Source: Geminicoccaceae bacterium (lineage in GTDB: Bacteria > Pseudomonadota > Alphaproteobacteria > Geminicoccales > Geminicoccaceae). Taken from it: DNA of 64,000 nucleotides. Each line of letters opens with the position of its first letter. Positions within the stretch are counted from its first letter, which is position 1. The notes beneath the pieces were generated by a model that was given only the letters and a program-made list of their open reading frames with translations, was not told the origin of the DNA and ran no database searches. The stretch covers positions 12-64,011 of the forward strand of contig JBDHTW010000014.1 of NCBI GenBank assembly GCA_039808865.1. The letters run 5' to 3'. Positions 7,044-54,723 of this stretch are shown piece after piece. The position numbers and the translations under genes were made by a program.

Positions 7044-8780
7044 ATGTCGACCACTACCCCCCAGGAGGCCACGACGTGCGATCTCCTGGTGATCGGCTCA
7101 GGCGCAGGTGGCCTGTCCGCCGCCGTGACGGCCGCGTGGCACGGCCTCAAGGTGATCGTGGCCGAGAAGGAGCCGGTGTTCGGCGGGACCACGGCCTGGT
7201 CCGGCGGCTGGATGTGGATTCCGGGCAACCCGCTGGCCAAGCGCGCCGGCATCGACGAGGATCCGGCGGCATTCCGGACCTACCTGCAGCACGAGCTGGG
7301 CAACCACTACGACGAGGCCATCATCGAGGCCTATCTGCGGACCGGGCCGGAGATGGTCACGTTCTTCGAGGAACATACCGCGGTTCGTTTCATCGACGGC
7401 AACCGCGTGCCGGACTTCCACGGCCGTACCCCGGCCGCCGGCACGGGCGGCCGCTCGGTCTGCGCCGCCCCCTATGATGGCAGGCAGCTAGGATCGCTGC
7501 TCGGCCGGCTGCGGCCACCGCTGACCGAGATCACCTTCATGGGCATGGGCATCGCCGCCGGGGCCGATCTCGGCCATTTTCTCAACGTCACCCGCTCGCT
7601 GCCGTCCGCGCTGCACGTGGCGCGCCGGTTCGGCAAGCACCTGATCGATCTCGCCCTGCATCGCCGCGGCATGCAGCTCGTCAACGGCAATGCGCTGGTG
7701 GCACGGCTGCTCAAGTCGGCGGCGGATCTCGGCGTCCAGCTCTGGGAAGCGGCGCCGGCCCAGCGCCTGCTCATCGAGAACGGCGCGGTGCGGGGCGCGG
7801 TCCTGGCGACGGCGGCGGGCGAGCGTACCGTGCACGCACGCCATGGCACCTTGCTGGCCTGCGGCGGCTTTCCGCACGACGCGGCGCGCCAACAGCGCCT
7901 GTTCCCGCATGCCGCCATGGGCCAGCGCCATTGGTCGGCGGCGCCACGCACCAACACCGGCGACGGCCTGCGTCTGGGCGAGACCGCCGGGGGCCACGTC
8001 GACGAGGCGCTGGCGGCCCCGGCCGCCTGGGCACCGGTCTCGCTCGTGCCCCGGGGCGACGGGACCTTCGGCCATTTTCCGCATCTGATCGAGCGGGCGA
8101 AGCCGGGGCTGATCGCCGTCAGGGCCGACGGGCGACGGTTCGCCAACGAGGCGGATTCCTACCACGACGTCATGGGGGCGCTGCTCGCCGCGACCGGGCC
8201 GGGCGAAGAGGTGGCCGCGTGGCTCGTCTGCGATCATCGCTTCCAGCGCCGCTATGGCCTGGGCTTCGCGAAGCCGGCGCCGCTGCCGCTCTTGCCCTAT
8301 CTGCGCTCGGGCTATCTCAAGCGCGGCGCCACGTTGGGCGAGCTTGCCCGCGCCTGCGGCATCGATGCGGCCGGCCTGGAGCAGACGGTGGCGACGTTCA
8401 ACCGTGATGCCGAGCGTGGCGAGGACCCGGCTTTCGGACGTGGATCGACGGCCTACAACCGCATCCAGGGCGATGCCGGCCATGGCCCCAACCCGTGCGT
8501 GGCGCCGATCGCGCAGGGGCCGTTCTACGCCGTGAAGATCGTGCCGGGCAGCCTCGGCACCTTCGCCGGGCTGCGCACCGACGCGTTCGCGCGCGTGCTC
8601 GGCCAGGACGGCCAGCCAATCCCGGGCCTCTATGCCGGCGGCAACGACATGGCGGCCGTGCTGGGCGGCACCTATCCGGCCGGCGGCATCACGCTCGGCC
8701 CGGCCATGACCTTCGGCTACATCGCGGCCCGCCATGCGGCGGGCCTCGCCGACCGCACCCATGCCGCCGCTGCGGCCTAG
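7044..8780 (+). CDS. FAD-dependent oxidoreductase, KstD-like, paralogue 2
   Basis: GSGAGG, GGTTAWSGG, RFANEADSY, GLYAGGND, GGTYPAGGITLGP. Confidence 0.85.
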   Translation: MSTTTPQEATTCDLLVIGSGAGGLSAAVTAAWHGLKVIVAEKEPVFGGTTAWSGGWMWIPGNPLAKRAGIDEDPAAFRTYLQHELGNHYDEAIIEAYLRTGPEMVTFFEEHTAVRFIDGNRVPDFHGRTPAAGTGGRSVCAAPYDGRQLGSLLGRLRPPLTEITFMGMGIAAGADLGHFLNVTRSLPSALHVARRFGKHLIDLALHRRGMQLVNGNALVARLLKSAADLGVQLWEAAPAQRLLIENGAVRGAVLATAAGERTVHARHGTLLACGGFPHDAARQQRLFPHAAMGQRHWSAAPRTNTGDGLRLGETAGGHVDEALAAPAAWAPVSLVPRGDGTFGHFPHLIERAKPGLIAVRADGRRFANEADSYHDVMGALLAATGPGEEVAAWLVCDHRFQRRYGLGFAKPAPLPLLPYLRSGYLKRGATLGELARACGIDAAGLEQTVATFNRDAERGEDPAFGRGSTAYNRIQGDAGHGPNPCVAPIAQGPFYAVKIVPGSLGTFAGLRTDAFARVLGQDGQPIPGLYAGGNDMAAVLGGTYPAGGITLGPAMTFGYIAARHAAGLADRTHAAAAA

Positions 8781-8798
8781 CACAAGGTGGACTTGCAG

Positions 8799-9410
8799 AT
8801 GCGCTATGAACTCGCGACCCTGGCCGTGAAGATGGGCTCGACCGCCAGCGTGGCGCAGGGCGTCGAGGCCTTCACGACCGCGGCCGAGGCCAAGGGCAAG
8901 CTTCTCGGCTGCTGGTTCTCGGACATCGGCGCGCTCAACCAGGTGGCGGTGCTGCGCGGCTTCGCCGACGAAGCTGAGCTCGCCGCCGAGCGCTGGCGGA
9001 CCCAGACCAGCGGCAACCCGTTCGGCTGCGCCGACATGCTGAACCAGATGACGCTGGAGAGCTACGCACCGTTTCCCGACCTGCCGCCGGTGCAGCCGGG
9101 CGCGTTCGGGCCCGTCTACGAGATCCGCTCCTACATCCTGAAGACCGGTGGCCTTCTGCCGACCTTCGAGGGCTGGGCGGAGAAGCTGCCGGCACGCACC
9201 GCGGTCTCGAAGCTGGTGGTCGCGATGTACGGCTTGGACGGGGCGCCGCGGATCACGCACATCTGGCCCTATGCCAGCATCGACGAGCGCTCGGCGCTGC
9301 GCGCGAAGTCGGTCGAGGTCGGCGCCTGGCCGCCGAAGAGTGCCGTATGGCTCACCCCCACCATGCAGTCGACGATCTACCTGCCGACCGCGATCTCGCC
9401 CCTGAAGTAG
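8799..9410 (+). CDS. NIPSNAP family protein (two-domain)
   Basis: Two repeats: YEL...GCWFSDIGALNQV and YEIRSY...ITHIWPY...R...R...WPP. Confidence 0.85.
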   Translation: MRYELATLAVKMGSTASVAQGVEAFTTAAEAKGKLLGCWFSDIGALNQVAVLRGFADEAELAAERWRTQTSGNPFGCADMLNQMTLESYAPFPDLPPVQPGAFGPVYEIRSYILKTGGLLPTFEGWAEKLPARTAVSKLVVAMYGLDGAPRITHIWPYASIDERSALRAKSVEVGAWPPKSAVWLTPTMQSTIYLPTAISPLK

Positions 9411-21608: not shown

Positions 21609-22612
21609 CTGCGTCCGATCTGCGCCATGCGCGCGAACAGGCGGGTGTTGAGCCAGATCGCGAGCAGGATGATCAGCCCGGTGACGATCTGGGTGAAGAA
21701 CGGCGACACGTGGGCGAGGATCAGGCCGTTGCCGATGACGGCGATGGTGAGAGCGCCCAGGACGGTGCCGACGATGCTGCCACGGCCGCCGGTCAGCGCG
21801 GTCCCACCCAGCACCACGGCCGCGATCACCTCGAGCTCGAAGCCGACCGCGGCATTCGAGCTGCCGGAGCCCAGCCGGCCGGCGATGACGATGCCGGCCG
21901 CGGCCGCCGCGGTGCCGGTCAGCACGTAGACCAGCAGCGTGATCCGCGCCACGGCGATGCCGGCGCGCCGGGCGGCCTCGGCATTGGCGCCGAGCGCCAC
22001 GACGTAGCGGCCGAAGCGGGTCCGGGTCAGCGTGATCCAGCCGGCCAGCGCCACGACGATCGCGAACGCCGCCGGCAGCGGGATGCCCAGGAACCAGCCG
22101 CGGCCGAGCTGGACGAACCAGCTGTCGGGCGCGATCGGAATCGAGAAGCCCTGCGTCAGCAGGAGCGCGACGCCGCGCAGGACCGACAGGCCGGCCAGGG
22201 TGACGATGAAGGAGGGGATGCGCTCGACGGCCACGAACCAGCCCTGCACGGCCCCGACCAGCGCGCCCAACAGCAGCATCAGCAGGACGGTGAGCGGCCA
22301 CGGCAAGCCCGCCTGCAGCGCTATCGCCGCCAGCGCGTTGACCAGGGCCACGGTCGAGCCGACCGACAGATCGATGCCGCCGGTGGTGATCACGAAGGTC
22401 ATCGCGACCGCGACCATCAGCAGGGGAGCCGACTGGCGCAGCAGGTTGAGCAGGTTGACCTGGGACAGGAAGGCGTCGGTGCCGATGGCGAACCCGGCCG
22501 CCATCAGCACGAAGAACACGGCGATGCTCAGCACCGGCGCCTGGGTCAGGACGAGGTCGGCCCAGGGGCTGCCCTGCGGGCGGCGCGCGCGCACCGGCTC
22601 AGGCCCGGCCAC
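21605..22612 (-). CDS. Monosaccharide ABC transporter permease (RbsC-like)
   Basis: TGGIDLSVGS, IPSFIVTLA, GANAEAARRAG, ELEVIAAVVLGGT. Confidence 0.92.
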   Translation of the reverse strand: MAGPEPVRARRPQGSPWADLVLTQAPVLSIAVFFVLMAAGFAIGTDAFLSQVNLLNLLRQSAPLLMVAVAMTFVITTGGIDLSVGSTVALVNALAAIALQAGLPWPLTVLLMLLLGALVGAVQGWFVAVERIPSFIVTLAGLSVLRGVALLLTQGFSIPIAPDSWFVQLGRGWFLGIPLPAAFAIVVALAGWITLTRTRFGRYVVALGANAEAARRAGIAVARITLLVYVLTGTAAAAAGIVIAGRLGSGSSNAAVGFELEVIAAVVLGGTALTGGRGSIVGTVLGALTIAVIGNGLILAHVSPFFTQIVTGLIILLAIWLNTRLFARMAQIGRR

Positions 22613-23372
22613 GCAGGCGCTCGGCCTTGCCGCCGACGATCAGGCCGACGAGATCCTCGAGATCGGTCTCGCCGATCCGCCGCTCGGCGACCTTGAGGCC
22701 CTCGTACATCACGGCGATCCGATCGCAGACCAGGAACAGATCCTGCAGCCGATGGGTGATCAGGATCACGCCGGCGCCGTCTTCGGCAAGCCGGCGGATC
22801 AGGCGCAGCACCGCCTCGACCTCGGCCACGGCCAGGGCCGAGGTCGGCTCGTCCATGATCATGACCTTGGGCGCGAACGCGGCGGCGCGGCCGATCGCGA
22901 TCGACTGGCGCTGGCCGCCGGACAGGCCGCCGACCAGGGCGCGCAGGTTCGGGATGTGGATCCCCAGCGCCTCCAGGTGTGCCCGAGCCTCGGCCTGCAT
23001 GCGCCGCTGGTCCAGCAGCGTCAGGCCGAGCAGGCGCCGGACCGGCTCGCGCCCCAGGAACAGGTTGCCCGCGACGTCGACCGAATCGCACAAGGAGAGA
23101 TCCTGGTAGACCATCTCGATCCGGCGCGCCCGGGCCTCCGCCGGCGTCGCGTAGGCCACCTGCTCGCCGTCGACGAGGATGCGGCCGGCATCCGGCACGT
23201 AGGCGCCGGCGATGATCTTGGTCAGCGTCGACTTGCCGGCGGCATTGTCGCCGACCAGCCCCAGAACCTCGCCGGGCCACAGCTCCAGATCGACACCGCG
23301 CAGCGCCTCGATCGAGCCGAAGCGCTTGCGGATGCCTTCGAGCCGCACCCTGGGGACGGCGGCCGTCGCCAC
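22599..23372 (-). CDS. Monosaccharide ABC transporter ATP-binding protein (single domain)
   Basis: GDNAAGKST, LSGGQRQ, MDEPT, ITH; GTG overlapping the upstream TAG. Confidence 0.92.
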   Translation of the reverse strand: MATAAVPRVRLEGIRKRFGSIEALRGVDLELWPGEVLGLVGDNAAGKSTLTKIIAGAYVPDAGRILVDGEQVAYATPAEARARRIEMVYQDLSLCDSVDVAGNLFLGREPVRRLLGLTLLDQRRMQAEARAHLEALGIHIPNLRALVGGLSGGQRQSIAIGRAAAFAPKVMIMDEPTSALAVAEVEAVLRLIRRLAEDGAGVILITHRLQDLFLVCDRIAVMYEGLKVAERRIGETDLEDLVGLIVGGKAERLRGRA

Positions 23373-24316
23373 TACTTGAAGACGGCGCGGTACGGGTCGA
23401 CGTTGGCCTTGGTCACGATCGTCACCGGCACCGCGATCTTGGCCGGCACCTTGCCGCCCTTGATCGCGGTCATCAGCGCGTCGACCGCGGCCGCACCCAT
23501 GCCGGCCGGATCCTGCTGCACGACGCCCACGACATAACCGTCGTCGATGCCCTTGATCGCCGAGGCGGTCAGATCCCAGCCCACGACCTTGACGCTGCCC
23601 TGCCGGCCCTGGCTCTCGACCGCGGCCACCGCACCGAGCAGCGCCGGCTCGCCGGTGGCATAGATGGCGGTCAGGTCCGGATTGGCCGTCATCAGGTTCT
23701 CGGCCGCGGCCATCGCGTTGTCCTGGATGTTGCGCCCGTCGACCACGCCGACGTTGGTGATGCCCGAAGCGGTCGCCACCACCGAATCGAACCCCTTCTG
23801 GCGGACGTTCTGGATGAACGAGTTGAGCGCGCCGACCGAGCCCAGCTTGGCCTTGCCGCCCATCTCGTCGTTGACGATCTTGACGAAATGCTCGCCGATC
23901 AGCTTGCCCGCGGCCTCGTTGTCGACGCCGACCTGCGCCAGCTGCGGCCCGGGCGGCAGGATCGCATCCACCGCCACCACCGGAATGCCCGCCTTCGCCG
24001 CCGCTTCCACCGCCGGCATGACGCCGTTGACGTCGATCGCGACGACGACGAGGCCATCCACCTTCTGCGCGATGTAGGTCTCGATCGCGTTGTTCTGCGC
24101 CGCCGGGTCGTTGTTGGCGTTGAAGATGACCAGCTTCGCGCCCAGCTCGGCCGCCTTCTTCTCGGCGCCTGCGTTCATCTGGGTGAAGAACAGCGCCTGC
24201 TGATTGATCTGCACGAGCGCGATGGTGGGCTCCGCGGCGCGGGCCGCATGATCGCCCAGGACGAGTGAGCCGGCGAGCACAAGGCCCGCCGCAAGCAGCT
24301 GGCGACGACAGCTCAT
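23372..24316 (-). CDS. Monosaccharide ABC transporter substrate-binding protein
   Basis: N-terminal signal, Peripla_BP_4-like pattern (FFTQMNAGA, GIPVVAVD, VVGWD, VQQDP); start could be up to 51 nt further upstream. Confidence 0.9.
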   Translation of the reverse strand: MSCRRQLLAAGLVLAGSLVLGDHAARAAEPTIALVQINQQALFFTQMNAGAEKKAAELGAKLVIFNANNDPAAQNNAIETYIAQKVDGLVVVAIDVNGVMPAVEAAAKAGIPVVAVDAILPPGPQLAQVGVDNEAAGKLIGEHFVKIVNDEMGGKAKLGSVGALNSFIQNVRQKGFDSVVATASGITNVGVVDGRNIQDNAMAAAENLMTANPDLTAIYATGEPALLGAVAAVESQGRQGSVKVVGWDLTASAIKGIDDGYVVGVVQQDPAGMGAAAVDALMTAIKGGKVPAKIAVPVTIVTKANVDPYRAVFK

Positions 24317-26957: not shown

Positions 26958-27103
26958 TGCTTGTCTCTCCTGTGGGCGGCCCAGCCCGCTATCAACCGGT
27001 CAGGGCGGGATCGGATGCACGTGACCGTCCGTCGCATGGCACGTGCTGCGTAGCGGCCTGTGTCCCTGTTTATCGCCGGCTCGTCATGTCGTGAACCGAC
27101 TTG

Positions 27104-28462
27104 TCAGCGCCCGACCTTGAGCCGCGTGCGTTTACCGTCGACCAGGGTGTGCGCTGGTCCGAGTGGCGTGAGCGTGTGCACGCCGTCCGGGTAGGGACCG
27201 GCAGGATCGGGCTCGATTCGCGCCACGGGAATCTCCTCGAACCGCTCGGGCGTCAGCACGTCGATGCGCAACAGGACCACGGCACCACCGTAGCGCTCGG
27301 AGCAGTCCTGGGCCGGACGGTAGAGCCGCCCGTCGTGCACGAAGGGCGGCCCGGCCGGGCGCGCGCTGCGGACGTCGCAGCGCACCGGATTGCCGGCGTG
27401 CGGCTGCCACGGCCCGAGGAGCCGATCGGCGTGGAACAGGAACAGCTTGGTCACGTCCTGATCGGCGTGATCCATGGCCAGCATCCACCACCGCCCGTCA
27501 TGGCGGAAGGGCGTGCAGTCGACACCGGCGAACCCGTCGAGCAGCACGGCCGCCGGCTCGAAGCGCTCGGGGAGGCGTACCGCACGCAGCAGGGTCACCC
27601 GGCCGGACGCCGAGTTCTCCGGCACGCAGTAGAGCACGCCCTCGTCCTCGACGAGGCACGGGTACGAGAGGTGCCCGGCGAGGCCGGTCGTCACCGGCAG
27701 CGGCTCCGGCGATTCCGGGCGAAGCGCCACGATCTCGCCACGACCGAGGCGCGGATCGAAGGCCTCGGCCAGGATGACCGGGCCGGTGGCGTCGACGAGG
27801 CCGAACGGATCGGCCAGGAAGCCGCCGCCGCTACGCTCGGGCAGCCACGCGACATCGTCGAGCGCCGGTCGGGTCAGAAAGCTGGCGATCGGCCGCGGCG
27901 CGATGCCGACCGCCCAGATCTCCTCGGTCAGCGCCTCCCGCACGCGCCCGACCGCGTTGCGCGCGACCTGCAGCGGCAGGGTCAGCCAGTCGGCGGCGGC
28001 GCTGGCATGCGGCTGCCCGAGGGCTGGCCCCGCCGTCGTGGCGCGATCCCGACCGAGCACGCGGGCGGGCCAGTCGGCACAGGTTTCGAGGATCCGCCGC
28101 AAGGTCAGGTACGGCGACAGCCCGCTGGACTTCACGGCCCCGGTCCGGAGCCGTCGCGCCGCGCCGTCGCTCGGCATGACGGCGAGCAGCGACACGGCGA
28201 CCGATCGGCCGGCCGCCGCGATCGCGGGCAGGCTCAGGGTGCGTGGTCCGGCCGGCGCATCGACCGCCAGGACGAGCAGCGGCAGCTCATGCCGGCGGGC
28301 CAGATCCGTCGCCACCCGGTTCGGGAGCAGGCTGACGACCGCCTCGGCCCGGGCCTCGTCCGCGGCGGCAAGCCGCAGCCCGAATCTCGCCAGGGCCGCC
28401 TCGGTGCGCCGGTCGAGATCGGCACGCCCGGTCGGGACGAGATGGACACTGCGCCTAGGCAT
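27104..28462 (-). CDS. GINT1-N-terminal-like beta-propeller protein (glycoside-hydrolase-like fold), function unknown
   Basis: FLADPF, HLSYP, GPWQPHAGNPV..D..SARPAG, RPAQDCS..YG motifs; TGATG coupling to the upstream glycosyltransferase. Confidence 0.7.
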   Translation of the reverse strand: MPRRSVHLVPTGRADLDRRTEAALARFGLRLAAADEARAEAVVSLLPNRVATDLARRHELPLLVLAVDAPAGPRTLSLPAIAAAGRSVAVSLLAVMPSDGAARRLRTGAVKSSGLSPYLTLRRILETCADWPARVLGRDRATTAGPALGQPHASAAADWLTLPLQVARNAVGRVREALTEEIWAVGIAPRPIASFLTRPALDDVAWLPERSGGGFLADPFGLVDATGPVILAEAFDPRLGRGEIVALRPESPEPLPVTTGLAGHLSYPCLVEDEGVLYCVPENSASGRVTLLRAVRLPERFEPAAVLLDGFAGVDCTPFRHDGRWWMLAMDHADQDVTKLFLFHADRLLGPWQPHAGNPVRCDVRSARPAGPPFVHDGRLYRPAQDCSERYGGAVVLLRIDVLTPERFEEIPVARIEPDPAGPYPDGVHTLTPLGPAHTLVDGKRTRLKVGR

Positions 28463-29754
28463 CACGATCCCGCCGCCAGGGAACCGTAAACGGCACACAA
28501 CCGGTCGGCCGCCCGTTGCCACGTCCAGTGCGCCACCGCGTCCTTGCGGCCGGCCGCACCCATAGCGCGAGCGCGCTCGGGGTCGGCCAGCAGCGTGAGC
28601 AGGGCGTCCGCCAGCGCCAGCGGGTCGCCCGGCTCGACGAGCAGCCCCGTTCGTCCGTCGGCCACCAGTTCGGGGATACCGCCGGCCCGGCTGGCCACCA
28701 CCGGCCGGCCCGCGGCCATGGCCTCCACCACCGGCAGGCCGAACGGCTCCTGGATCACCGACGGCGTCACGGCCACGGCGCTGCGGCCATAGATCAGCGG
28801 CATGCGCTCGAAAGGCTCGGCCGCCAGGAATCGCGTCGCCGCACGGGCCGCGGGCGAGAGCCGCCGCTCGATGGTCCGACGGTAGCTGCTGCGGCTCGAG
28901 ATCACCTGCCGGGACAGGCCGACGAGTGGATTCCGGCCGTAGAGGTCGCGCAGGCCCTCCAGGAGCGGGCCGCGGCCGAATTGGGGCAGAATCGAGGCCG
29001 GCAGGTAGCCCGGGCGGCCGACGATCTCGAGCGTGGCCTCGGGCCGGACCGCGACGACGCGGCTGAAGGCTTGGGCCAGGACGTGGACGCCCTTCTCGGG
29101 TGAGACCCGGCCCACGAAGAGGAGCCGGGCCGATGCGCCGCCGGCATCGGCGTCGGGGGCCGCGAACGCATCGGAATCGACACCGTTGCCGATCATGTGG
29201 AACTTGGCGGCATGGCTCGGCAGATGGGCGCGCAGACGCTGCGCCAGATGCTCGGAGCAGGTGACGACGACGTCCACGGCATCCAGCGCCCGCGCGGCCG
29301 CCTCGGGCGCGAAGCCGAACGGATGCGGGTGGTGCAGGTGCAGGACCAGCGGCACGTCGGGCAGGGCTGCGCGCAACCTCGGCGCGTGCTGCAGGTAGGT
29401 CTGCAGGTGCAAGAGGTCGGGCGGTTCGCGCCCGAGCAGCTCGGCCACGCGCGCGAAGTAGCCGCGATAGTAGCCCGGCGCCACGGAGCGCGCCGACAGG
29501 CCGGGCCAGAGGCCGGAAAGCAGCTCGAGCGCCTGCTCGTTGCGATCGCCCTCGACCGGGACCTGCACGACCGGATGCCCGCCGGGTCCGGCAGCGGCTG
29601 CCGTCTCGCCGTGGTCGGAGCCGACATAGAACGTGAGCGCGTAGCCGGGTGGCAGGCACTTGGCGAGCTCGGAGGCGACGATGCCGGTGGAACCGCTCAA
29701 CAGACCGCTCGCGAGCAGCCGGTCACGCGGCTGGCACACCATGGCTATGCGCAT
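28462..29754 (-). CDS. GT4 family glycosyltransferase
   Basis: IGNGVD, LFVGRVSPEKG, PSVIQEPFGLPVVEAMAAG, GGIPE. Confidence 0.92.
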   Translation of the reverse strand: MRIAMVCQPRDRLLASGLLSGSTGIVASELAKCLPPGYALTFYVGSDHGETAAAAGPGGHPVVQVPVEGDRNEQALELLSGLWPGLSARSVAPGYYRGYFARVAELLGREPPDLLHLQTYLQHAPRLRAALPDVPLVLHLHHPHPFGFAPEAAARALDAVDVVVTCSEHLAQRLRAHLPSHAAKFHMIGNGVDSDAFAAPDADAGGASARLLFVGRVSPEKGVHVLAQAFSRVVAVRPEATLEIVGRPGYLPASILPQFGRGPLLEGLRDLYGRNPLVGLSRQVISSRSSYRRTIERRLSPAARAATRFLAAEPFERMPLIYGRSAVAVTPSVIQEPFGLPVVEAMAAGRPVVASRAGGIPELVADGRTGLLVEPGDPLALADALLTLLADPERARAMGAAGRKDAVAHWTWQRAADRLCAVYGSLAAGS

Positions 29755-40244: not shown

Positions 40245-40865
40245 CTAGCTTGCGCGGCGGGCGGCAGCATCCTTCAGCCGGTCGCCGTGCACTTGGCGCA
40301 GCTTCTTGACCTTGGGTTCGGCGACGGCACGGATGTAGGGCTGTTCGGGATTCCGCGCCGCATAGCCGTGATGATAAGCCTCAGCCTCGTAGAAGGCGGT
40401 CAGCGGCTCGAGCGTCGTCTGCACCTTGGCGTCGAAGATGCCGGCCCGATCGATCTGCCGGATATAGGCCGCCGCCACGTCGCGCTGCCCCTCGTCGGCA
40501 TAGAAGATCGCCGAGCGGTACTGGCGGCCGACATCATGGCCCTGGCGATCCTTCTGGGTCGGATCGTGCGCGATCGAGAAGAACATCTTCAGGATTTGGC
40601 CCATGCTGATCCGGGCCGGATCATAGGTGATCTCGATCGCCTCCGCATGGTCGGTGCGACCACCGCACACCGTGCGATAGTCGGCGGTCTCGGCGGTGCC
40701 GCCGGCATAACCCGGACGCACGGCGAGCACACCGTCGAGCTGCGCATAGACGGCCTCGGTGCACCAGAAGCAGCCGCCGGCGAGAACCAGCTTCGCCGGC
40801 GCCGGCCCGGCCGGCAGATCCTGCTCGGGATCGGGAAACGACCAGGGATCGATCTTCAGCGCCAT
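40245..40865 (-). CDS. msrA: Peptide-methionine (S)-S-oxide reductase
   Basis: GGCFWCTE, GYAGG, DHAEAI, HDPTQ.DRQG.DVG.QYRSAIF, AEAYH. Confidence 0.95.
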   Translation of the reverse strand: MALKIDPWSFPDPEQDLPAGPAPAKLVLAGGCFWCTEAVYAQLDGVLAVRPGYAGGTAETADYRTVCGGRTDHAEAIEITYDPARISMGQILKMFFSIAHDPTQKDRQGHDVGRQYRSAIFYADEGQRDVAAAYIRQIDRAGIFDAKVQTTLEPLTAFYEAEAYHHGYAARNPEQPYIRAVAEPKVKKLRQVHGDRLKDAAARRAS

Positions 40866-41040
40866 GGCTTCCTCCGTACAACCGGCTGGGCATGCAGATG
40901 GCGATGCGGCACCGCGTTTTGCAGTGGCGGCCATGCCGGCGCAATCTCCCATGCGCGTGAGGACGATGGCGGATGCGCTTATCAAGACCGCCATCGGCAG
41001 CTAAAGGCATCCAACAAGCTGCCGCAAGGACGAGGGAAGC

Positions 41041-42030
41041 ATGCGCTCGATCAGGATCGTGTCGGCTGCGGCGGCGCTGACGCTGGCGTGCCTGCTGCCA
41101 CAGCCGGGCTTCGCCGACGACAGCTCCGTGCCCGAGCAGATCGTCGACACCATGAACCAGCTCTGGGGCCGGCATCCCGGCATCCGCGCCAACCATGCCA
41201 AGGGGATCGTGGTCGAAGGCAGCTTCGTCCCCAGCGCCGAAGGTGCGAAGCTGAGCACGGCCATCGTGTTCAAGAGCGGAACGATCCCCGTGATCGCCCG
41301 GTTTTCGGACGCGACGGGCCTGCCCACGATCGCGGACGGCAGCGCCAACGCCAACCCGCACGGGTTCGCCGTCCGCTTCCAGCTGCCGGACGGCGGCGAG
41401 ATGGATGTCGTCACCAACTCGCTGGCATTCTTTCCGGTGGCCACCGGCGAGGAGTTCCGCGATCTGCTGCAGGCGGTGGCGATGACCGGACCGGATGCCG
41501 CCAAGCCCACGCCGGTCGAGCGCTTCATGGCGGCACACCCGGCCGCGCCGCAGGCCTTCGCCAGCGTGGCCACGCCCACGAGTTTCGCGCGCGAGATCTA
41601 CAACGGCGTCAACGCCTTCGTGTTCGTCGACGCTGCGGAGAAGCGGCAGCCGTTCCGCTTCCAGCTGGTTCCGGTCGAAGGCGCGGAACATCTGAGCGCC
41701 GCCGAAGCGGCCAAGCGGGGTCCGGATTTTCTGACCGAAGAGCTGCGCGCGCGCCTGGCCAAGCAGCCGGTGGCGTTCCGCCTGCTCGCCCAGCTCGCCG
41801 AGCCCGGCGATCCGATCGACGACGCGACCAAGCCCTGGCCGGCCGAGCGCCGCGAGGTCGATCTCGGCACGATCACCCTGACCAAGCCGGTGGCCGACAA
41901 CGCGGCGGCCGAGAAGGAGCTGCTGTTCCTGCCCAGCAACCTCACCGACGGCATCGAACCCTCGGACGACCCGTTGATCGACACCCGCGTCCAAGCCTAT
42001 GCGGTGTCGTTCGACCGACGCTCGCAGTGA
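41041..42030 (+). CDS. Catalase-related peroxidase (SrpA-like), exported
   Basis: Signal peptide; RANHAKG (distal His), ARFS, TNS (distal Asn), proximal R..AY..S..RR. Confidence 0.88.
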   Translation: MRSIRIVSAAAALTLACLLPQPGFADDSSVPEQIVDTMNQLWGRHPGIRANHAKGIVVEGSFVPSAEGAKLSTAIVFKSGTIPVIARFSDATGLPTIADGSANANPHGFAVRFQLPDGGEMDVVTNSLAFFPVATGEEFRDLLQAVAMTGPDAAKPTPVERFMAAHPAAPQAFASVATPTSFAREIYNGVNAFVFVDAAEKRQPFRFQLVPVEGAEHLSAAEAAKRGPDFLTEELRARLAKQPVAFRLLAQLAEPGDPIDDATKPWPAERREVDLGTITLTKPVADNAAAEKELLFLPSNLTDGIEPSDDPLIDTRVQAYAVSFDRRSQ

Positions 42031-43058: not shown

Positions 43059-45644
43059 TCATGCGCTGCGCTCGAGCTGCTGCATCGCGGTGCGACTGAT
43101 TTGAACCACCCGTCCGAGCTCGACCACCAGGTCGGCCACGTCCTCGCCCCGGTCGGCCCGCTCCTCGATCATGCTCGCCAACACCGACACACGGGCAAGA
43201 CCAAAACTGCCCGCCGTTCCCCGCAGGCGATGCGCCAGCTGCAGTAGCCGTTCCCGATCACCCAGAGCTTTGAGCAATAGATCGAAACTTTCAACTGCAC
43301 CGTCCAAGCCACGGCTCATCAGCTTGCGGAACACCTGGGGCGGCACGTTGCGGGCCATGCCTTCGAGCAGCTCGCGGTTGAGCAACGGCTGGTCACTGGC
43401 CATGCTCGGCTCGGTCTCGGGCGACGGCGCGGTCGGGTCGGCCGCCGCGATCTCGGCAAGGGCGGCGAACAGATCGCGCCAGACGATGGGCTTGGTCAGG
43501 CACAGATTCATGCCTGCGGCGAGATAGCGCTCGCGCTCGGCGGTCATCACGTTGGCGGTCAAGGCCAGGATCGGCACATGCGCGGCGGGGCCAGGCAGAC
43601 GACGAATGCGCCGCGTCGCCTCGATGCCGTCCATGACCGGCATCTGCACGTCCATCAGCACGACGTCGAACCGCTCCTCGGCAGCCAGCCGCACGGCGGC
43701 ATTGCCGTCACCTGCCACCACCACCTCGTGCCCGCGGCGGGCGAGCATCTCGGCGAGCAACTCGCGGTTGACGTCGACGTCATCGACGACCAGGACCCGC
43801 AGATGACGGGTGGCCGTTGGCTCGAGATTGCCACGCTGGGCCGCCGCAACGGCGTCGCCCAATCCAAGCGTCAGCTCGAACCAGAACAGGCTGCCCTTCC
43901 CGGGCTCGCTCTCGAGCCCGATCTTGCCGCCCATCGCCTCGACCAGAGACTTGCAGATCACGAGGCCGAGGCCGCTGCCACCATAATTGCGCGTGGTCGA
44001 GCTGTCGGCTTGCACGAAAGGTTGAAACAGCTCCGACTGCCGTGCCCGCGGTATACCGATGCCGGTGTCGCGCACCTCGAAGCGCAGGCGGGTGGTCTCG
44101 CCCTGCGTCGCGAGCTGATGGACGGAAAGCGTGACCGTGCCCCGGGCGGTGAACTTGAGCCCGTTGCCGACAAGGTTGACCAGCACCTGCCGCAGCCGCG
44201 TCGGGTCGCCGCGCACGACCAAGCTTGTCGACGTGATCAGCATGACCCGCAGCTCCAGGCCACGCTCGGCCGCCTGGGGTGCGAGCAGGGAGCGGACCTG
44301 CTCCAAGATCTCGACGATCGGGAAATCGATGCGCTCGAGATCGAGATGCCCGGCCTCGATCCGCGAGAAGTCGAGAATGTCGTTGATGATGCTGAGCAGG
44401 TGACGACCCGAGGTGCGGATCGTATCGACGTAGCGCCGTTGCGTCACCCCCAGCTTCTCGACCGCCAGTAGGTCGGCCATGCCGAGGACGCCCGTCATCG
44501 GTGTCCGGATCTCGTGGCTCATCGCGGCGAGGAACTCGGATTTGGCCCGGTTCGCCCGGTCGGCCATCTCGGCCAGACGGCGCATTTCCTCGGCCTGCTG
44601 CTCGAGCCGCGTCGTGGCCGCGGTCAGTTCGAACTCGCGCCGCTTGAGTTCGCTGATGTCGGTGCACACGCTGACGAAACTGCCGTCCTCGGTCAGCCGA
44701 TCCGAGACCAACAGCCAGCGGCCGTCGTCGAGATGCTCCTCGACGGAACTCACTCGGCTCTGCCGTTCATCCGGGTTGCTGTCCACGGCCGTCCGATAGC
44801 GAAGCAACGGTGGCCTGGACTGCTCCGGGTAGAACTCCTGGTAGCGCTGGTTGCAGAGCACGAGCTTCGCCTTCGCGTCGAAGATCGCGAACCCCTCGCT
44901 GATGCTCTCGATCGCCTGACGCAGCTGCAGCCGCGATCGCTCCGCGTCCCGCCGCGCGGCGGCGGTAAAATGGAGCAGCCGGTGCGTCTGCCACGTCGAC
45001 CGCAGCGCTCCCACCACGACGAGGACCGCCGCGGCGAGGAACAGAACCACGAACATGAGGACATGACGGGTCACGTCCTGGTTCACGACACGCAGGTCTT
45101 CTTGCTGTTCCAGGTTGCTCCGCAGATCCGTGACGGTCAGCCTCTGGACCCGCTCGAGGAACGGCGCGAACTCATGGTAAAGCGCACCGGCGCCGGCCAT
45201 GTCGCCGAAGCGCAGCGCGGCGACGATCGAGTCCGACGCATCGAGCAGGCCGCGCAGACCTTCGATCAGATCCATCGTCTCCGGCTGATCGGCGATCGCG
45301 GCGCCGAGACGGCCGCTTCTGTACATGTCGACCCGGCTCCACAGCAGGTCGAAGCGCTTCTGCAGTTCGGCCGCATCGAACGACGACGTGCCACTGCCAT
45401 ACTGCAGGACCGCGAGCAGAAAGCGCTCCATCTCGAGTTCGAGCTGGGCGGAATTCCAAGCCTGGTTGACGGAGAACTTGACGTTCAGACGATCCTGGAG
45501 CTGTTCATAGCGCGTGATCGAGAACACCAGCAGGCCGGCCAAGGCCAGCACGAGCGCGAACAGCACGACGGACCATGCCGTTGCGGTACGTCGCAGCCGC
45601 TGAATGCTCGCACCTTGATCAGCTTCAGCCGACGTAGTGATCAT
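43059..45644 (-). CDS. Membrane hybrid histidine kinase: TM-periplasmic DcpA-like domain-TM-PAS-HisKA-HATPase-REC-Hpt
   Basis: TM1 about aa 24-43; W-x7-E and RFDLLWSR; TM2; PAS (EGFAIFD..LVLCN...[10 protein letters not shown]); SHEIRTPM; NLVGN..KFT, DTGIGI, GSGLGL; REC (DD..N, MDVQMP, KP); Hpt AHRLRGTAG. Confidence 0.9.
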
Positions 45645-45907
45645 GAATGTCGTGGCTTCGCCCGCGGCACGAAAGTCGCTGCGCGCCCAGGCCTCCCGAG
45701 GGCCAGGTTGCCAGCATCCTGGCCGCATCCGCGCAATCTACTACAGATTGCGGCGTTTCCTTCTTCGACAGAGCCGATCCGAGTAAACCGTAGAGGTGAT
45801 GGGAATCAAGCTGTTTCTATCATGTGTACATCTTCGCGCACGGCGATCCGGGTGCTTTCTCCACGCGCCGCGTCCGGCCACCATCCCGTCATTCCGGAGC
45901 TGTTCCG

Positions 45908-50589: not shown

Positions 50590-50849
50590 CGGGCGCGGAC
50601 TATGCCGTCGTCGCTCGCGCCCGGCAAGGGTGCTGCCGCGGCCCGGCTCTTGGTGCAGGTGCAACCGGGACCATATCCAGGTATCTTGTGGCGTTTTTTG
50701 CCGTGCCTCGGGCGCGAGCAGAAGGCTACCAACGCCGGCAGGGCTCGGGCCCGGCGCAAGGACCGATCTCGGACCAAGCGGCCTGGCGCGCATGAGCCGG
50801 CCGGAAGCAGCGTGGCCGACCGAGCGATCAGGCCATGCCGGAGTGATGC

Positions 50850-52430
50850 ATGCTTCGTGAATCGAGCTGGCGCAGGCGGGCGAGATGGTTCCGGTGCGCG
50901 ATCGCGGCCATGGCGGCCGGCACGGCCGTCCTGCCGCCGCCCGACGCCCGGGCGGCCAGCGGCGATCCCGCGCCGACGGCCTCGCCATTGTCTCCGGCCA
51001 CGCCCGCCTATTTCCGCTTCCTCTATCCGATGTACGCCAAGGCCCCCCGGCCGGCGGAAATCTACCGCCAGGGCGGCATCCCGGCCATCGTGCCCAAGCT
51101 CGAGGTCGACTGGGACCCGTTCGGCAGGGTCGGCACCTACCTGCCGAACGGCCCGGTGCAGACCGCCGCCAACGCCTTTTTCCAGGCGCTGGGAACCAAC
51201 GGTCGCTCCTGCGCCACCTGCCATCAGCCGTCGAGCGGCATGGGGCTGAGCTTGCGCAACATCAAGGCGCGGTTCAACGCGACCGGCGGGAAGGACCCGC
51301 TGTTCGCCCCGGTGGACGGCGCCAACTGCCCGCCAGCCGCCCCGCCGGGCTCCACACCGACGACCAATCGCGCGGCCTACAGCGTCATGCTCGACCGCGG
51401 CGCCGTGCGCATCCCGCTACCCTGGCCGCCCAGGGATGCCGGCGGCATGGCCAAGCCGGTCGAGTTCGACATCACGATCACGCCGCAGGCGGACAAGCCG
51501 GGGTGCAACGTCGACTCAACCTACGGGGTCACCGCCGGCTACGTCTCGGTCTATCGGCGGCCGCTGATGGCGGCCCAGATGAACTTCAAGACGCTGCGTG
51601 CGAACGGTAAGGGTCCGATTCTCCCCGGCAGCCTGATGTGGGACGGCCGTGAGCCGTCCCTGGAGCAGCAGGCGATCAACGCGACCCTCGGCCACGCGCA
51701 GGCGACCCATGCCCCGACCACGGCCGAGCTTCGCCAGATCGTCCAGTTCCAGAACGGCATCTTCAGCGCGCAACTGATCGATGGGGCGGCGGGCCGGCTG
51801 GATGCGCAGGGTGCCAAGGGCGGGCCGGTGCACCTTGCCAAGCAGGTTCCCGAGCAGGCCGTGGGTCCGACCTTCGACGAGTACCAACGCTGGGCGGGCG
51901 GTGCGGCGAAGGCGCGCTCGATCGCGCGCGGTCAGGACATCTTCAACAACCGGCTGTTCATCATCCAGAACGTCGCCGGCTTCAACGACCGCGTCGATGT
52001 CGGCAATCCCGCGGTCGGCTCCTGCAGCACCTGCCACAACGTCGCCCATGCCGGGTCCGATGCGCTGGCCGGGCCGCAGCGCGACATCGGCATCGGCGGC
52101 ACGGCGCAGTTCATCGGCGGCCCGAAGCCGGCAGCCAGCCTGCCGCGCTTCACGCTGACCTGCCATGCCGACGCCATACCGCATCCCTATCTCGGGCGCG
52201 GACCGATCGTGACCAACGATCCCGGCATGGCGCTGCTGACCGGCAAGTGCGCCGACATCGGCAAGTTCACGCTGCCGCAGCTGCGCGCCCTGGCGGCGCG
52301 GGAGCCCTATTTCCACGACGGCAGCGCGCGCACCTTGAAGGCCGTGGTCGACGTCTACAACCAGCGCTTCAACGTCGGCCTGACGGCCCAGGACGAAGAG
52401 GATCTCGTCAGTTTTCTGGCCGCACTCTAG
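50850..52430 (+). CDS. Exported di-haem cytochrome c of the bCcP/MauG superfamily
   Basis: Two CxxCH (CATCH 51210-51224, CSTCH 52023-52037), [28 protein letters not shown]...VVDVYN; N-terminal signal. Confidence 0.82.
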
Positions 52431-52590: not shown

Positions 52591-53040
52591 ATGGCCGAAG
52601 GGCTGCTGACCCGGGAACCGATCACCGATTTCGGCGAATTCCGGGCCTATCTGCGCCACGAGCGGGAGGAGATGGTCTTCGAGGCGTTCCGCGAGCAGGA
52701 CGGGCGCGCCTGGCTGCTGCGGGTACCCGTGCAGGCGCGGACGGCGCTGGCAGGCCTCGTGCGCGAGGTCGGGCCGATGCTGGCCGATCCGGCGCAGGCC
52801 GCGGCCATCGACCCGGCCGGTGCGGCCATCCTCAAGCAGGTGGCGATCGGGCCGAAGGATCAGCTCGCCGCCGTCGTGCTCGAGGACGGTGGCGAGCGGG
52901 CGTTCGCGCTGTGGCGTCAGGAGCAGCTGCGTAGCGGCTGGAGCTGGACCATCGACGTCGTGGTGGTGCCGATCGAGCTCGCGAAAAGCCTGTGCAGCCT
53001 CGTGCTGCAGGTGATCGATCGGCTCAACGGCCGGCGCTAG
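52591..53040 (+). CDS. Hypothetical protein (149 aa, no recognised domain)
   Basis: Open frame filling the gap between known genes, GC3-rich codons, GGAG upstream. Confidence 0.65.
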   Translation: MAEGLLTREPITDFGEFRAYLRHEREEMVFEAFREQDGRAWLLRVPVQARTALAGLVREVGPMLADPAQAAAIDPAGAAILKQVAIGPKDQLAAVVLEDGGERAFALWRQEQLRSGWSWTIDVVVVPIELAKSLCSLVLQVIDRLNGRR

Positions 53041-53467: not shown

Positions 53468-54723
53468 TGCAGCATCTCCGCTACTCGCCTGAGGCTGGCG
53501 ACGAAGGCATCGATATCGTCGTGGCTGGTGTAGAGGCCGACCGACGCCCTGGCGCTGGCGGCCAGGCCCAGCCGATCGTGCAGCGGCATGGCGCAGTGAT
53601 GGCCGGTGCGCACCGCGATCCCGTCGAGATCGAGAAGCGTGCCGATGTCCTGTGGATGCACGCCGTCAACGGCGAAGGTCAGCACGCTGCACTTGTCCCG
53701 GGCGGTGCCGATGACGCGCACGCCCGGCACCTGGTTGATCGCCCGGGTGGCATAGGCCAGCAGCTCGCCTTCGTGCGCGGCGATCGCCTCCAGGCCCAGC
53801 CCCCGGACATAGTCGATCGCGGCACCCAGAGCCACGATCCCGGCGATGTCGGGCGTGCCGGCCTCGAACTTGAAGGGGATCTCGTTCCAGGTCGTCCCGG
53901 CGAAGCTCACCCGCTCGATCATGTCGCCGCCGCCCTGATAAGGCGGCATCGACTCCAGATGGCCGGCCTTGCCGTACAGCACGCCGACGCCGGACGGGCC
54001 GTAGAGCTTGTGCCCGGAGAAGGCGAGGAAGTCGGCGTCCAGCTCCTGCACGTCGACCGGGATGTGCTGCACGGCCTGGGCCGCGTCGATCAGGATCGGA
54101 ATGCCCCGCGCATGCGCGATCCGGACCAGCTCATGCACCGGGTTGACCGTGCCCAGCACGTTGGACACCCACGCGACCGCGATCATCCGGGTCCGCTCGC
54201 TGATCCGCTCGACGAAGGCGTCGAGCAGCAGCTCGCCCGCATCGTCGACCGGTGCCGCGACGACCTTGGCCCCGGCGGTGGCGGCGGCCATCTGCCACGG
54301 CACGATGTTGGCGTGGTGCTCCATCTCGGTCACCAGCACCTCGTCGCCGGGCTGCAGGCGAGGCCGCAGGAACGAGGCCGCGACCAGGTTGATGGCCTCG
54401 GTGGCGTTGCGGGTGAAGATGATCTCGCGCCAGTCGGCGGCGCCGAGGAAGCGCTGCACCTTGCGCCGGGCCGCGTCGTCGGCCGCCGTCGCGCGCTGGC
54501 TGAGATCGTACACGCCGCGGTGGATGTTGGCGTAATCCTGCTCGTAGAAGCGCTTGAGCGTGTCGATGACCACCGCCGGCTTCTGCGCGCTGGCCGCGGT
54601 GTCGAGATAGACCAGCGGCCGGTCGTTCATCCGCGTCGCCAGGATCGGGAAATCGCGGCGCACCCGCTCCACGTCGTAGGCCGGCGCGGCCGCGGCCTGT
54701 GGACGGGCCGCCATCGTGTTCAT
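53464..54723 (-). CDS. sufS: Cysteine desulfurase (group II)
   Basis: YLDTAAS, ANIHRG, EMEHHAN, FSGHK (PLP Lys), RTGHHCA. Confidence 0.95.
   Translation of the reverse strand: MNTMAARPQAAAAPAYDVERVRRDFPILATRMNDRPLVYLDTAASAQKPAVVIDTLKRFYEQDYANIHRGVYDLSQRATAADDAARRKVQRFLGAADWREIIFTRNATEAINLVAASFLRPRLQPGDEVLVTEMEHHANIVPWQMAAATAGAKVVAAPVDDAGELLLDAFVERISERTRMIAVAWVSNVLGTVNPVHELVRIAHARGIPILIDAAQAVQHIPVDVQELDADFLAFSGHKLYGPSGVGVLYGKAGHLESMPPYQGGGDMIERVSFAGTTWNEIPFKFEAGTPDIAGIVALGAAIDYVRGLGLEAIAAHEGELLAYATRAINQVPGVRVIGTARDKCSVLTFAVDGVHPQDIGTLLDLDGIAVRTGHHCAMPLHDRLGLAASARASVGLYTSHDDIDAFVASLRRVAEMLQ

Follow-up and report, generated by a model that had tools for sequence, protein, structure and literature searches.

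Which chemistry is to be expected of a di-haem c-type protein that belongs to none of the characterized families of its superfamily and whose gene stands alone? The question is raised by a 64,000-nucleotide stretch of contig JBDHTW010000014.1 from a Geminicoccaceae bacterium (assembly GCA_039808865.1; this whole stretch is hereinafter the window), in which a gene on the plus strand (50850..52430, stop codon 52428-52430) codes for a 526-aa protein with two haem-attachment motifs. A first-pass annotation had taken it for an orphan MauG/BthA/MbnH-type enzyme, with a tyrosine-ligated second haem and a remodelled distal pocket. The motifs on which that view was built, namely two CxxCH, WDGR, the distal segment, YFHDGS...VVDVYN, RRPL and four extra cysteines, are all present where it had placed them. 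We find the protein to be a far outlier of the superfamily comprising the bacterial cytochrome c peroxidases (bCcPs) and MauG, and a member of a large, deeply diverged and unnamed clade thereof. We lean, with modest confidence, towards viewing it as a free-standing periplasmic, calcium-free, His/Tyr di-haem, peroxide-driven oxidase or peroxidase with substrates encoded elsewhere, a reading that draws on alignments, conservation patterns and gene neighborhoods.

Placement in the bCcP/MauG superfamily and extent of the clade

The assignment to the superfamily holds good on several lines of evidence. Along with the two CxxCH motifs, the protein matches the Pfam family CCP_MauG (PF03150) with 38 bits against a cutoff of 25.6 (E-value 3.2e-9; a partial match of residues 390-499 to profile positions 22-77). 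Moreover, an AlphaFold2 model built from 32 homologues (mean predicted local distance difference test [pLDDT] 86; predicted template-modelling score 0.85) is matched by Foldseek with a probability of 1.0 to bCcPs, hydrazine synthase gamma, PDB 6E1C (the MbnH-type 'MauG-like protein associated with microbial copper homeostasis') and MauG, at target-normalised template-modelling (TM) scores of 0.41-0.50; RoxA and BthA are not among the Foldseek matches listed (best 50 of 72 at E<=10).

The first haem motif, C121-A-T-C124-H125 (51210..51224; this and all further features of the gene lie on the plus strand), is invariant across the family (88/88 and 245/245 aligned members), takes the place in the order of landmarks of the N-terminal haem of bCcP and MauG, and is predicted to hold the peroxide-binding haem with His125 as its proximal ligand. 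The second, C392-S-T-C395-H396 (52023..52037), is invariant in 89/89, is followed by the C-terminal bCcP/MauG module and is predicted to hold a six-coordinate His/Tyr haem. As these motifs are invariant or nearly so over hundreds of homologues, they are not chance occurrences. The landmarks follow one another as in bCcP and MauG (CxxCH, R-N-x-P region, WDGR, CxxCH, PYFHDGS, axial ligand), with ~190 residues beyond the length of those proteins distributed over three insertions.

Membership in the three enzyme families named by the first-pass annotation, on the other hand, did not bear out. No NCBIfam model covers the window protein or six other family members: the best model, MbnH (TIGR04039), gives 49.5 bits against a cutoff of 362.85, and MauG (TIGR03791) 34.6 against 443.85. 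Single-sequence phmmer searches against solved structures recovered 6E1C as the best match (1e-8) via residues ~450-526 only, and BthA (6NX0) is absent from their matches at E<=10. RoxA membership was likewise rejected, with 13.3 bits against a cutoff of 26.7 for Pfam RoxA-like_Cyt-c (PF21419), no RoxA among the Foldseek matches listed, and an E-value of just 0.003 with a wide family profile. The protein is thus not in the MauG, MbnH, BthA, RoxA or canonical bCcP families. Profiles of the family reached 6E1C (4e-13), bCcPs (1e-11 to 1e-7), MauG (~1e-6) and BthA (3e-6), and more weakly hydrazine synthase gamma (2e-5) and RoxA, with sequence alignment to these solved relatives limited to the last 25-80 residues. 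By contrast, a MauG query recovered BthA at 2e-46, 6E1C at 2e-29 and bCcPs at 1e-17 to 1e-26, and the mutual matches of MauG, BthA, MbnH-like proteins and bCcPs span 170-350 residues, mostly their full length.

Nor is the protein an orphan in sequence, as had been supposed. A word-indexed search recovered >2354 homologues of 450-600 aa, annotated, where named, as 'cytochrome c peroxidase' or 'hypothetical', and a profile search run exhaustively over 1.84 billion cluster representatives yielded at least 704 clusters (50% identity) at E<=1e-30. With each species represented by a single genome, relatives are encoded at 434 loci. Carriers include other Geminicoccaceae (best 74% identity, with the same synteny), Skermanella, Derxia and other Burkholderiales, Steroidobacteraceae, Sphingomonas soli, Bryobacteraceae and other Acidobacteriota, and Polyangiaceae; several metagenome-assembled genomes (MAGs) possess three or four paralogues on different contigs. 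A few members are fused to further domains, namely a pectate lyase (P0233, 901 aa), an RCC1-repeat propeller (P0204, 808 aa) and Dictyostelium-type CTDC repeats (P0245, 657 aa); these may be real extracellular multidomain enzymes or artefacts of gene calling. Neither Pfam nor NCBIfam has a model specific for the clade, full-text searches of a limited literature collection recovered no study of a member, and a superfamily network from 2019 covers bCcP, MauG and Burkholderia clusters only (PMC6405878).

Haem ligands, distal pocket and calcium site

Sequence alignment to enzymes of known structure is largely confined to the C-terminal region. We used as reference a 373-aa MauG sequence, in which the residue numbering agrees with the published positions and which matches PDB 3L4M chain A end-to-end (861 bits). 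In an hhalign comparison of the family with it, window residues 468-506 align to MauG 259-297 in 39 columns with no gaps, laying the VVDVYNQR of the motif VVDVYNQRF (aa 499-507) over MauG AILFYNKY, such that Tyr503 (52356..52358) falls on Tyr294, the axial ligand of the MauG haem. Other alignments concur: HMMER sets VVDVYNQ on VIDIYSE of 6E1C with the Tyr in the same column, and the Tyr of the family shares its column with Met258 of the Nitrosomonas bCcP 1IQC (via the family member P0237, ungapped) and, in a profile match, with the NTM Met of the Shewanella bCcP 3O5C. The column is Tyr in 89/89 of the proteins from genome loci; with cluster representatives to E~1e-83 added, it is Tyr in 245/248 and His in the remaining three (P0191, DLHAARY; P0215, AWHDRHF; P0229, DFHNRRY), which, as aligned, are naturally occurring equivalents of MauG Y294H. 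Since His is the other residue that ligates this haem in relatives, such a Tyr/His exchange is what one expects of an axial position. The C-domain of the 89 proteins has no other conserved Met or His (H489 in 49/89; H400 variable), and His489 of the PYFHDGS motif was rejected as a haem-2 ligand with a column of H 49 and S 34 of 89. Tyr503, which the first-pass annotation had already singled out, is accordingly predicted to be the axial ligand of haem 2, with a case as strong as sequence can make it.

The motif M263-W264-D265-G266-R267 (51636..51650) supplies the predicted inter-haem Trp, with HMMER aligning mwDGR to the FWDGR of bCcPs (3O5C, 6QKN), which MauG likewise has, and W264 thereby corresponding to MauG Trp93. 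It is retained in 71/89 and in nearly all of the window protein's own subfamily. In a sister subfamily, all 12 proteins have Ala, Ser, Tyr or Phe instead, reminiscent of the Ser at this position in BthA (PMC6405878), and the same replacements are seen in 6 proteins outside it. The distal segment follows (aa 271-284; 51660..51701), and an ungapped count from W264=Trp93, the same register that the first-pass annotation had used, equates Q274 with Gln103, A278 with Pro107, H282 with residue 111 and Q284 with Glu113. The residues Q274, A278 and H282 are each present in 89/89 proteins (258, 260 and 260 of 262 in the wider set), and position 284 is Gln in 84/89 and Glu in 3. This near-invariance makes the remodelled distal pocket, with an invariant His and with Ala and Gln in place of the MauG Pro and Glu, a trait of the family. 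In no register of the segment is the catalytic Glu kept (Q284, or G281/H282), and His282 is the obvious candidate for a distal acid-base residue. Two other proposals for haem 1 were discarded: Met131 as a ligand, its column being M/W/L/F, and a SoxA/TsdA-like His/Cys haem, considered on account of weak matches (Pfam E-value 0.063; 2C1D E-value 0.003-0.04) that cover the CxxCH stretch only, with the invariant cysteines forming two predicted disulfide pairs.

At the calcium site, too, the family departs from bCcP and MauG. The place of their R-N-x-P segment is taken by Y235-R236-R237-P238 (followed by L239; 51552..51563), with Arg for the Asn; the order of motifs would match YRRP to MauG D64-R65-N66-T67-P68. 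Both R236 and R237 are invariant (89/89 each; 259/259 and 258/259 non-gap in the wider set), which upholds the earlier reading that the calcium-site Asn is gone. That reading can be refined, as a further basic residue falls on the same site: in the segment R484-E-P486-Y-F-H-D-G-S (484-492; 52299..52325), of which hhalign sets a 15-residue stretch on MauG LRNVAVTGPYMHNGV, Arg484 corresponds to MauG Thr275 and BthA Lys444, and Pro486 to MauG Pro277. Column 484 is always basic in the 89 proteins (R75/H13/K1) and R189/H57/Q4 of 250 in the wider set. The MauG Ca2+-site residues Asn66, Thr275 and Pro277 are hence represented by Arg236/Arg237, Arg484 and Pro486, the Pro alone being kept. In BthA, Lys444 fills the Ca2+ position at the Thr275 site and a K444R variant is fully active (PMC6405878), a precedent that makes a calcium-free, Arg-filled site a well-founded expectation for the window protein, in which Arg484 would stand in for Ca2+.

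The remaining conserved features concern export and disulfides. Residues 1-~36 (50850..50957), with an RRRAR n-region, a hydrophobic core and an A-R-A cleavage motif, are probably a signal peptide, making the protein probably Sec-exported and periplasmic; residues 1-40 have pLDDT <50 in the model, and the N-termini of homologues are hydrophobic and variable. Such a leader suits a c-type cytochrome matured in the periplasm. Apart from Cys16 in the signal peptide and the haem-motif cysteines 121, 124, 392 and 395, the protein has exactly four Cys: Cys160 (51327..51329; 88/88 close relatives), in the N-domain insertion; Cys219 (51504..51506; 89/89); Cys438 (52161..52163; 89/89), between haem 2 and the Tyr ligand; and Cys467 (52248..52250; 89/89), in a G-K-C-A-D-I-G motif. 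In the wider family they are lost pairwise: C160 and C219 show 19 double losses against 1 single (Fisher 2e-26) and C438 and C467 21 against 4 (Fisher 1e-25), values that are inflated by the kinship of the sequences, even as the two kinds of pairwise loss are mutually independent. The patterns found are CCCC (190), xxxx (15), CCxx (6) and xxCC (2), with none crosswise. This pairwise loss indicates two putative disulfides, of which C160-C219 would lie within the first insertion and C438-C467 in the stretch that separates the Tyr from the His of haem 2. In BthA, that stretch (from the haem-2 His371 to Tyr463) likewise carries a disulfide, Cys415-Cys430 (PMC6405878).

Gene neighborhoods and the question of a partner

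The flanks of the di-haem gene hold pyrB, pyrC, an AI-2E-family transporter gene and plsY upstream on the minus strand, and a 149-aa open reading frame (ORF) followed by a suf operon with an Rrf2 regulator downstream. As previously noted, no mau, mbn, mto or phosphatase gene adjoins it. Pfam scans of 30 further ORFs of the window detected no mau, mbn, cupredoxin or quinoprotein gene, and tblastn of the 64-kb window with a galactose/glyoxal-oxidase-like (GO-like) protein from a related locus (L004) recovered nothing; the window has no di-haem paralogue either. The 149-aa ORF (52591-53040, plus strand; GC3, the G+C fraction at third codon positions, 0.90) lacks a signal peptide, matches neither a Pfam nor an NCBIfam family, and lies beside a SufT-like gene. 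Its conservation extends no further than the nearest syntenic relatives (L012 78%, L005 66%). It was discarded as a partner and is regarded as a synteny neighbor; L012 has a further gene between it and the di-haem gene.

Comparison across genomes likewise points away from a fixed partner for the window subfamily. On clustering the ORFs of 86 loci, leaving out the di-haem family itself and its antisense ORFs, the top neighbor family occurs in 11 loci and comprises generic ABC ATPases, and neither this clustering nor tblastn over 171 loci recovered a conserved partner. In distant members of this subfamily (L006, L007, L009) the flanking genes are unrelated, and even among close relatives the slot between pyrB and suf is variable, holding the gene alone (as in the window), a tandem pair, an RTX-like insert, or GO-like and amidohydrolase genes. 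The tandem is that of L005 (8001-9623 and 9744-11309; P0006 and P0012). The insert is that of L012, the closest genome relative (a Geminicoccaceae MAG), where a gene at 7597-8862 (minus strand), between the di-haem gene and the 149-aa ORF, codes for a 421-aa protein with Gly/Asp-rich, RTX-type-like calcium-binding repeats, judged by eye. As the subfamily is nearly always encoded alone and often in multiple copies, a free-standing oxidant is favored; similarly, the known maturases (MauG, MbnH and apparently the sister subfamily) adjoin their substrates, by which token a lone gene is read as free-standing.

The only recurring neighbor with an obvious chemical link is the GO-like gene; of the 171 loci, three independent ones have it (two in Alphaproteobacteria MAGs, the third in a MAG of Acidobacteriota). 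It lies directly upstream of the di-haem gene, with an amidohydrolase downstream, in L004/L022 and L013, and two genes upstream in the acidobacterial L065, with a gene for a HAF-repeat protein between. These genes (L004:6394-7908, equal to L022:4235-5749; L013:4887-5765; L065:2994-4742), all on the same strand as the di-haem gene, code for proteins with the Glyoxal_oxid_N and GO-like_E_set domains, the L065 copy also having Kelch motifs and an fn3 domain. Characterized galactose and glyoxal oxidases produce H2O2 and need oxidative activation of their Cu-tyrosyl site, and the presence of this H2O2-producing family at these loci suggests a link to peroxide.

A different picture emerges in the sister subfamily (37-43% identity), in which the inter-haem Trp is absent. 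Here, a gene for a ~270-aa secreted protein lies immediately downstream in ~40 loci (L075-L091, L129 and L136-L168; e.g., L086:7443-8240 and L090:7422-8243). This protein has four conserved Cys (F-x-x-C-P-x-x-R-D-T, C-W-L) and a weak OmpA-like C-terminal domain, with its N-terminal part matching no Pfam or NCBIfam family, and a TonB-dependent receptor is often encoded nearby. The enzyme and the ~270-aa protein are a candidate enzyme-substrate pair, and together with the fusions described above this partner gene points to an extracytoplasmic oxidative role.

With respect to the gene itself, the 526-codon ORF is present in the mechanical ORF list, and independent gene callers reached the same call for an identical protein on three public metagenome contigs. 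Its GC3 of 0.90 is similar to that of the adjoining genes, and a Shine-Dalgarno-like GGAG (50840..50843), read from the sequence, lies 6 nt before the ATG. The sequence was found again in activated-sludge, biofilm and indoor-surface metagenomes, and in metatranscriptome contigs of four biofilm samples its depth is about that of the pyr and suf neighbors, which suggests that it is transcribed. We looked for a sigma-70-like promoter and found none at the gene, an Rfam scan near it recovered no family, and alignment of five orthologous upstream regions showed no conserved motif except the pyrB leader. Elsewhere in the window, metatranscriptome depth rises up to 122 at 54124-54347 (the sufS/sufD overlap) against 2-10 around it; many contigs there continue into dissimilar sequence, and the peak is probably a cross-mapping of a conserved stretch from other organisms. 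At 40245-42030, an msrA (peptide methionine sulfoxide reductase; 249 aa including an N-terminal extension) and a gene for a 329-aa catalase-related protein are divergently oriented, and a hybrid histidine kinase is encoded at 43059-45728; together these may form an oxidative-stress island at 8-10 kb distance from the di-haem gene. Two plus-strand ORFs, at 22032-23537 (501 aa) and 27101-28489 (462 aa), matched no Pfam family at E<=1e-5; the latter borders a polysaccharide-synthesis cluster at ~28-40 kb with GT4 and GT2 glycosyltransferases, a C-methyltransferase, an epimerase, a flippase and a sulfotransferase.

Proposed chemistry and comparison with known systems

Put together, these features allow a mechanism to be proposed for a free-standing, peroxide-driven enzyme. 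Haem 1, ligated by His125 and otherwise open, would bind H2O2, and His282, with Gln274 and Gln284, would replace the missing Glu in its acid-base role and promote O-O cleavage. In oxidising haem 1, H2O2 would yield a second oxidising equivalent that passes via Trp264 to the low-potential haem 2, with its predicted His396 and Tyr503 ligands, so that the product state would be either a MauG/BthA-like bis-Fe(IV) or an Fe(IV)=O plus a radical; given Tyr503 and Trp264, bis-Fe(IV) formation is plausible. Arg484 would keep the propionate-water network without Ca2+, the disulfides C160-C219 and C438-C467 would stabilise two large insertions, and the substrates would be small molecules or generic periplasmic donors rather than one neighboring protein.

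Several points weigh against this reading. The catalytic Glu, which MauG needs for stabilising bis-Fe(IV), is absent, and His282 could instead be the sixth ligand of haem 1. The register of the distal segment is itself uncertain, as the HMMER alignment to bCcP moves its end by 2-3 residues, and the N-terminal two thirds of the protein match solved structures weakly, in short HMMER stretches around CxxCH and WDGR only. The AlphaFold2 model contains no haem, and the ligation of haem 2 and the disulfides are predictions from sequence. A partner may be encoded elsewhere in the genome, and the sister subfamily does have a fixed partner gene; metatranscriptome contig depth is a poor measure of transcription, in which DNA carry-over is possible.

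One alternative is a dedicated protein-modifying maturase like MauG or MbnH, which would remotely oxidise specific Trp, Tyr or Cys residues of a target encoded elsewhere, e.g., a galactose-oxidase-like radical copper oxidase or some other protein of the periplasm. His/Tyr ligation together with an inter-haem Trp has so far been a hallmark of remote protein oxidisers (PMC6405878), a GO-like gene stands beside family members in two phyla, and the sister subfamily always has the secreted 4-Cys/OmpA-C-like protein directly downstream in its ~40 loci. Nevertheless, we hold this to be unlikely: tblastn detected no GO-like gene in the window, the Trp-containing subfamily has no conserved neighbor across >100 loci, the surface relay Trp199 of MauG is without an equivalent, and multiple paralogues per genome suit a diversification of substrates better than a single maturase. 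On a broader version of the same thought, the clade as a whole would be a fourth independent lineage of calcium-free His/Tyr di-haem remote oxidants that install or activate protein-derived cofactors. The targets would be, e.g., the GO-like radical copper enzymes (L022, L013, L065) or the 4-Cys/OmpA-like protein of the sister subfamily, and the window protein would be a trans-acting version with its target elsewhere in the genome; this we consider quite unlikely.

An ordinary periplasmic cytochrome c peroxidase, to which a cytochrome c or cupredoxin would supply the electrons for mere H2O2 detoxification, is what the 'cytochrome c peroxidase' annotations of homologues would imply. It would accord with bCcPs as the best or near-best solved profile matches, with a stand-alone gene whose transcript level is about that of its housekeeping neighbors, with the msrA and catalase-related genes 8-10 kb off, and with the BthA variant Y463H, which still reduces H2O2 (PMC6405878). 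Three bCcP hallmarks fail, however, with the axial Met replaced by Tyr, the Ca2+-site Asn by Arg and the distal Glu by Gln/His; a His/Tyr haem is expected, from MauG chemistry, to be of low potential and a poor acceptor from high-potential donors (PMC6405878); and simple detoxification leaves the ~190 conserved extra residues unexplained, rendering this an improbable account. A bCcP core with large insertions is also what the protein has in common with RoxA, and an O2-using oxygenase of that style would act at haem 1 on an organic substrate, extracellular or periplasmic, by cleavage or oxygenation. Distant members come close to the RoxA-like_Cyt-c cutoff (P0237 with 28.2 against 26.7), a pectate lyase domain is fused to one member, and the family is found in Steroidobacteraceae and Polyangiaceae. 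Against this, 4B2N (RoxA) is the weakest solved relative, reached over 25 residues by the wide profile and with no match from single sequences, it is missing from the Foldseek matches listed, the window protein itself stays well below that Pfam cutoff, and the second haem of RoxA is bis-His where a Tyr is predicted here, making such an oxygenase very improbable. Finally, the invariance of His282 and a distal segment without a conserved acid would be compatible with a non-catalytic di-haem electron carrier, in which His282 and Tyr503 would be the sixth ligands of haem 1 and haem 2, respectively. This is extremely improbable, given that the WDGR-Q motif of peroxide-activating relatives is conserved, that two haems of very low potential would be odd for a carrier, and that the GO-like neighbors at some loci suggest peroxide.

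To our knowledge, only MauG, BthA and MbnH-type enzymes pair a His/Tyr haem with a peroxide-binding haem. They are the main source of what is known about bis-Fe(IV) and long-range protein oxidation. The present clade is far larger and more diverged than all three, with carriers among Alpha-, Beta- and Gammaproteobacteria, Acidobacteriota and Myxococcota of soil, sludge and biofilm habitats, and it keeps the Tyr (and, in the window subfamily, the inter-haem Trp) while having an invariant His for the Glu, Arg for the Ca2+ and two insertions with predicted disulfide braces. Were its members to form high-valent di-haem states, they would separate the essential from the dispensable features of MauG and would point to a common, unrecognized periplasmic oxidative activity of environmental bacteria. 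With cultured carriers such as Skermanella aerolata, Derxia gummosa, Geminicoccus spp. and Sphingomonas soli, the clade is a good bioinorganic target, if not a first-order surprise.

Among the known systems, RoxA (4B2N) is like the window protein in its enlarged bCcP-like di-haem core, and is the most distant of the solved relatives (E-value 0.003 over 25 residues with the wide profile). The canonical bCcPs (Shewanella 3O5C, Nitrosomonas 1IQC) are the best fold matches (E-value 2e-6), are among the best profile matches, and have the WDGR, the LRxL..PYFHDGS and the C-terminal helix in common with it; unlike them, the window protein has Tyr for the axial Met, has lost the Ca2+ site and the distal Glu, and has ~190 residues and two Cys pairs more. 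With MauG (3L4M; target-normalised Foldseek TM 0.43-0.48) it shares the order of the haems and four aligned positions (Tyr503=Tyr294, Trp264=Trp93, Gln274=Gln103, Pro486=Pro277), but it has Ala for Pro107, Gln for Glu113 with His282 two residues earlier, and Arg for Asn66 and Thr275, no equivalent of Trp199 (the stretch GSCSTCH has no Trp before the second CxxCH) and no mau genes.

The MbnH-type 6E1C, the best match among solved structures, shares the motif PY(F/M)HDGS...V(I/V)D(I/V)Y with its Tyr in the same column. Only ~55 residues align, however, MbnH being ~390 aa long as against 526 aa with large insertions here, and the window protein has a different distal pocket, no Ca2+-site Asn, and neither an MbnP-like partner nor a TonB receptor encoded adjacently. 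BthA (6NX0) shows ~30% identity to MauG, belongs to Burkholderia cluster IIIb and has a phosphatase neighbor (PMC6405878). The wide profile reaches it at 3e-6 over 34 residues only, it has an inter-haem Ser and the distal Glu277 where the window protein has Trp264 and His/Gln, and no phosphatase gene lies beside the window gene. On the other side, if the predictions hold, BthA and the window protein would have in common a His/Tyr second haem, a basic residue in place of Ca2+ at the Thr275 position (Lys444 and Arg484, respectively) and a disulfide in the stretch from the haem-2 His to the Tyr.

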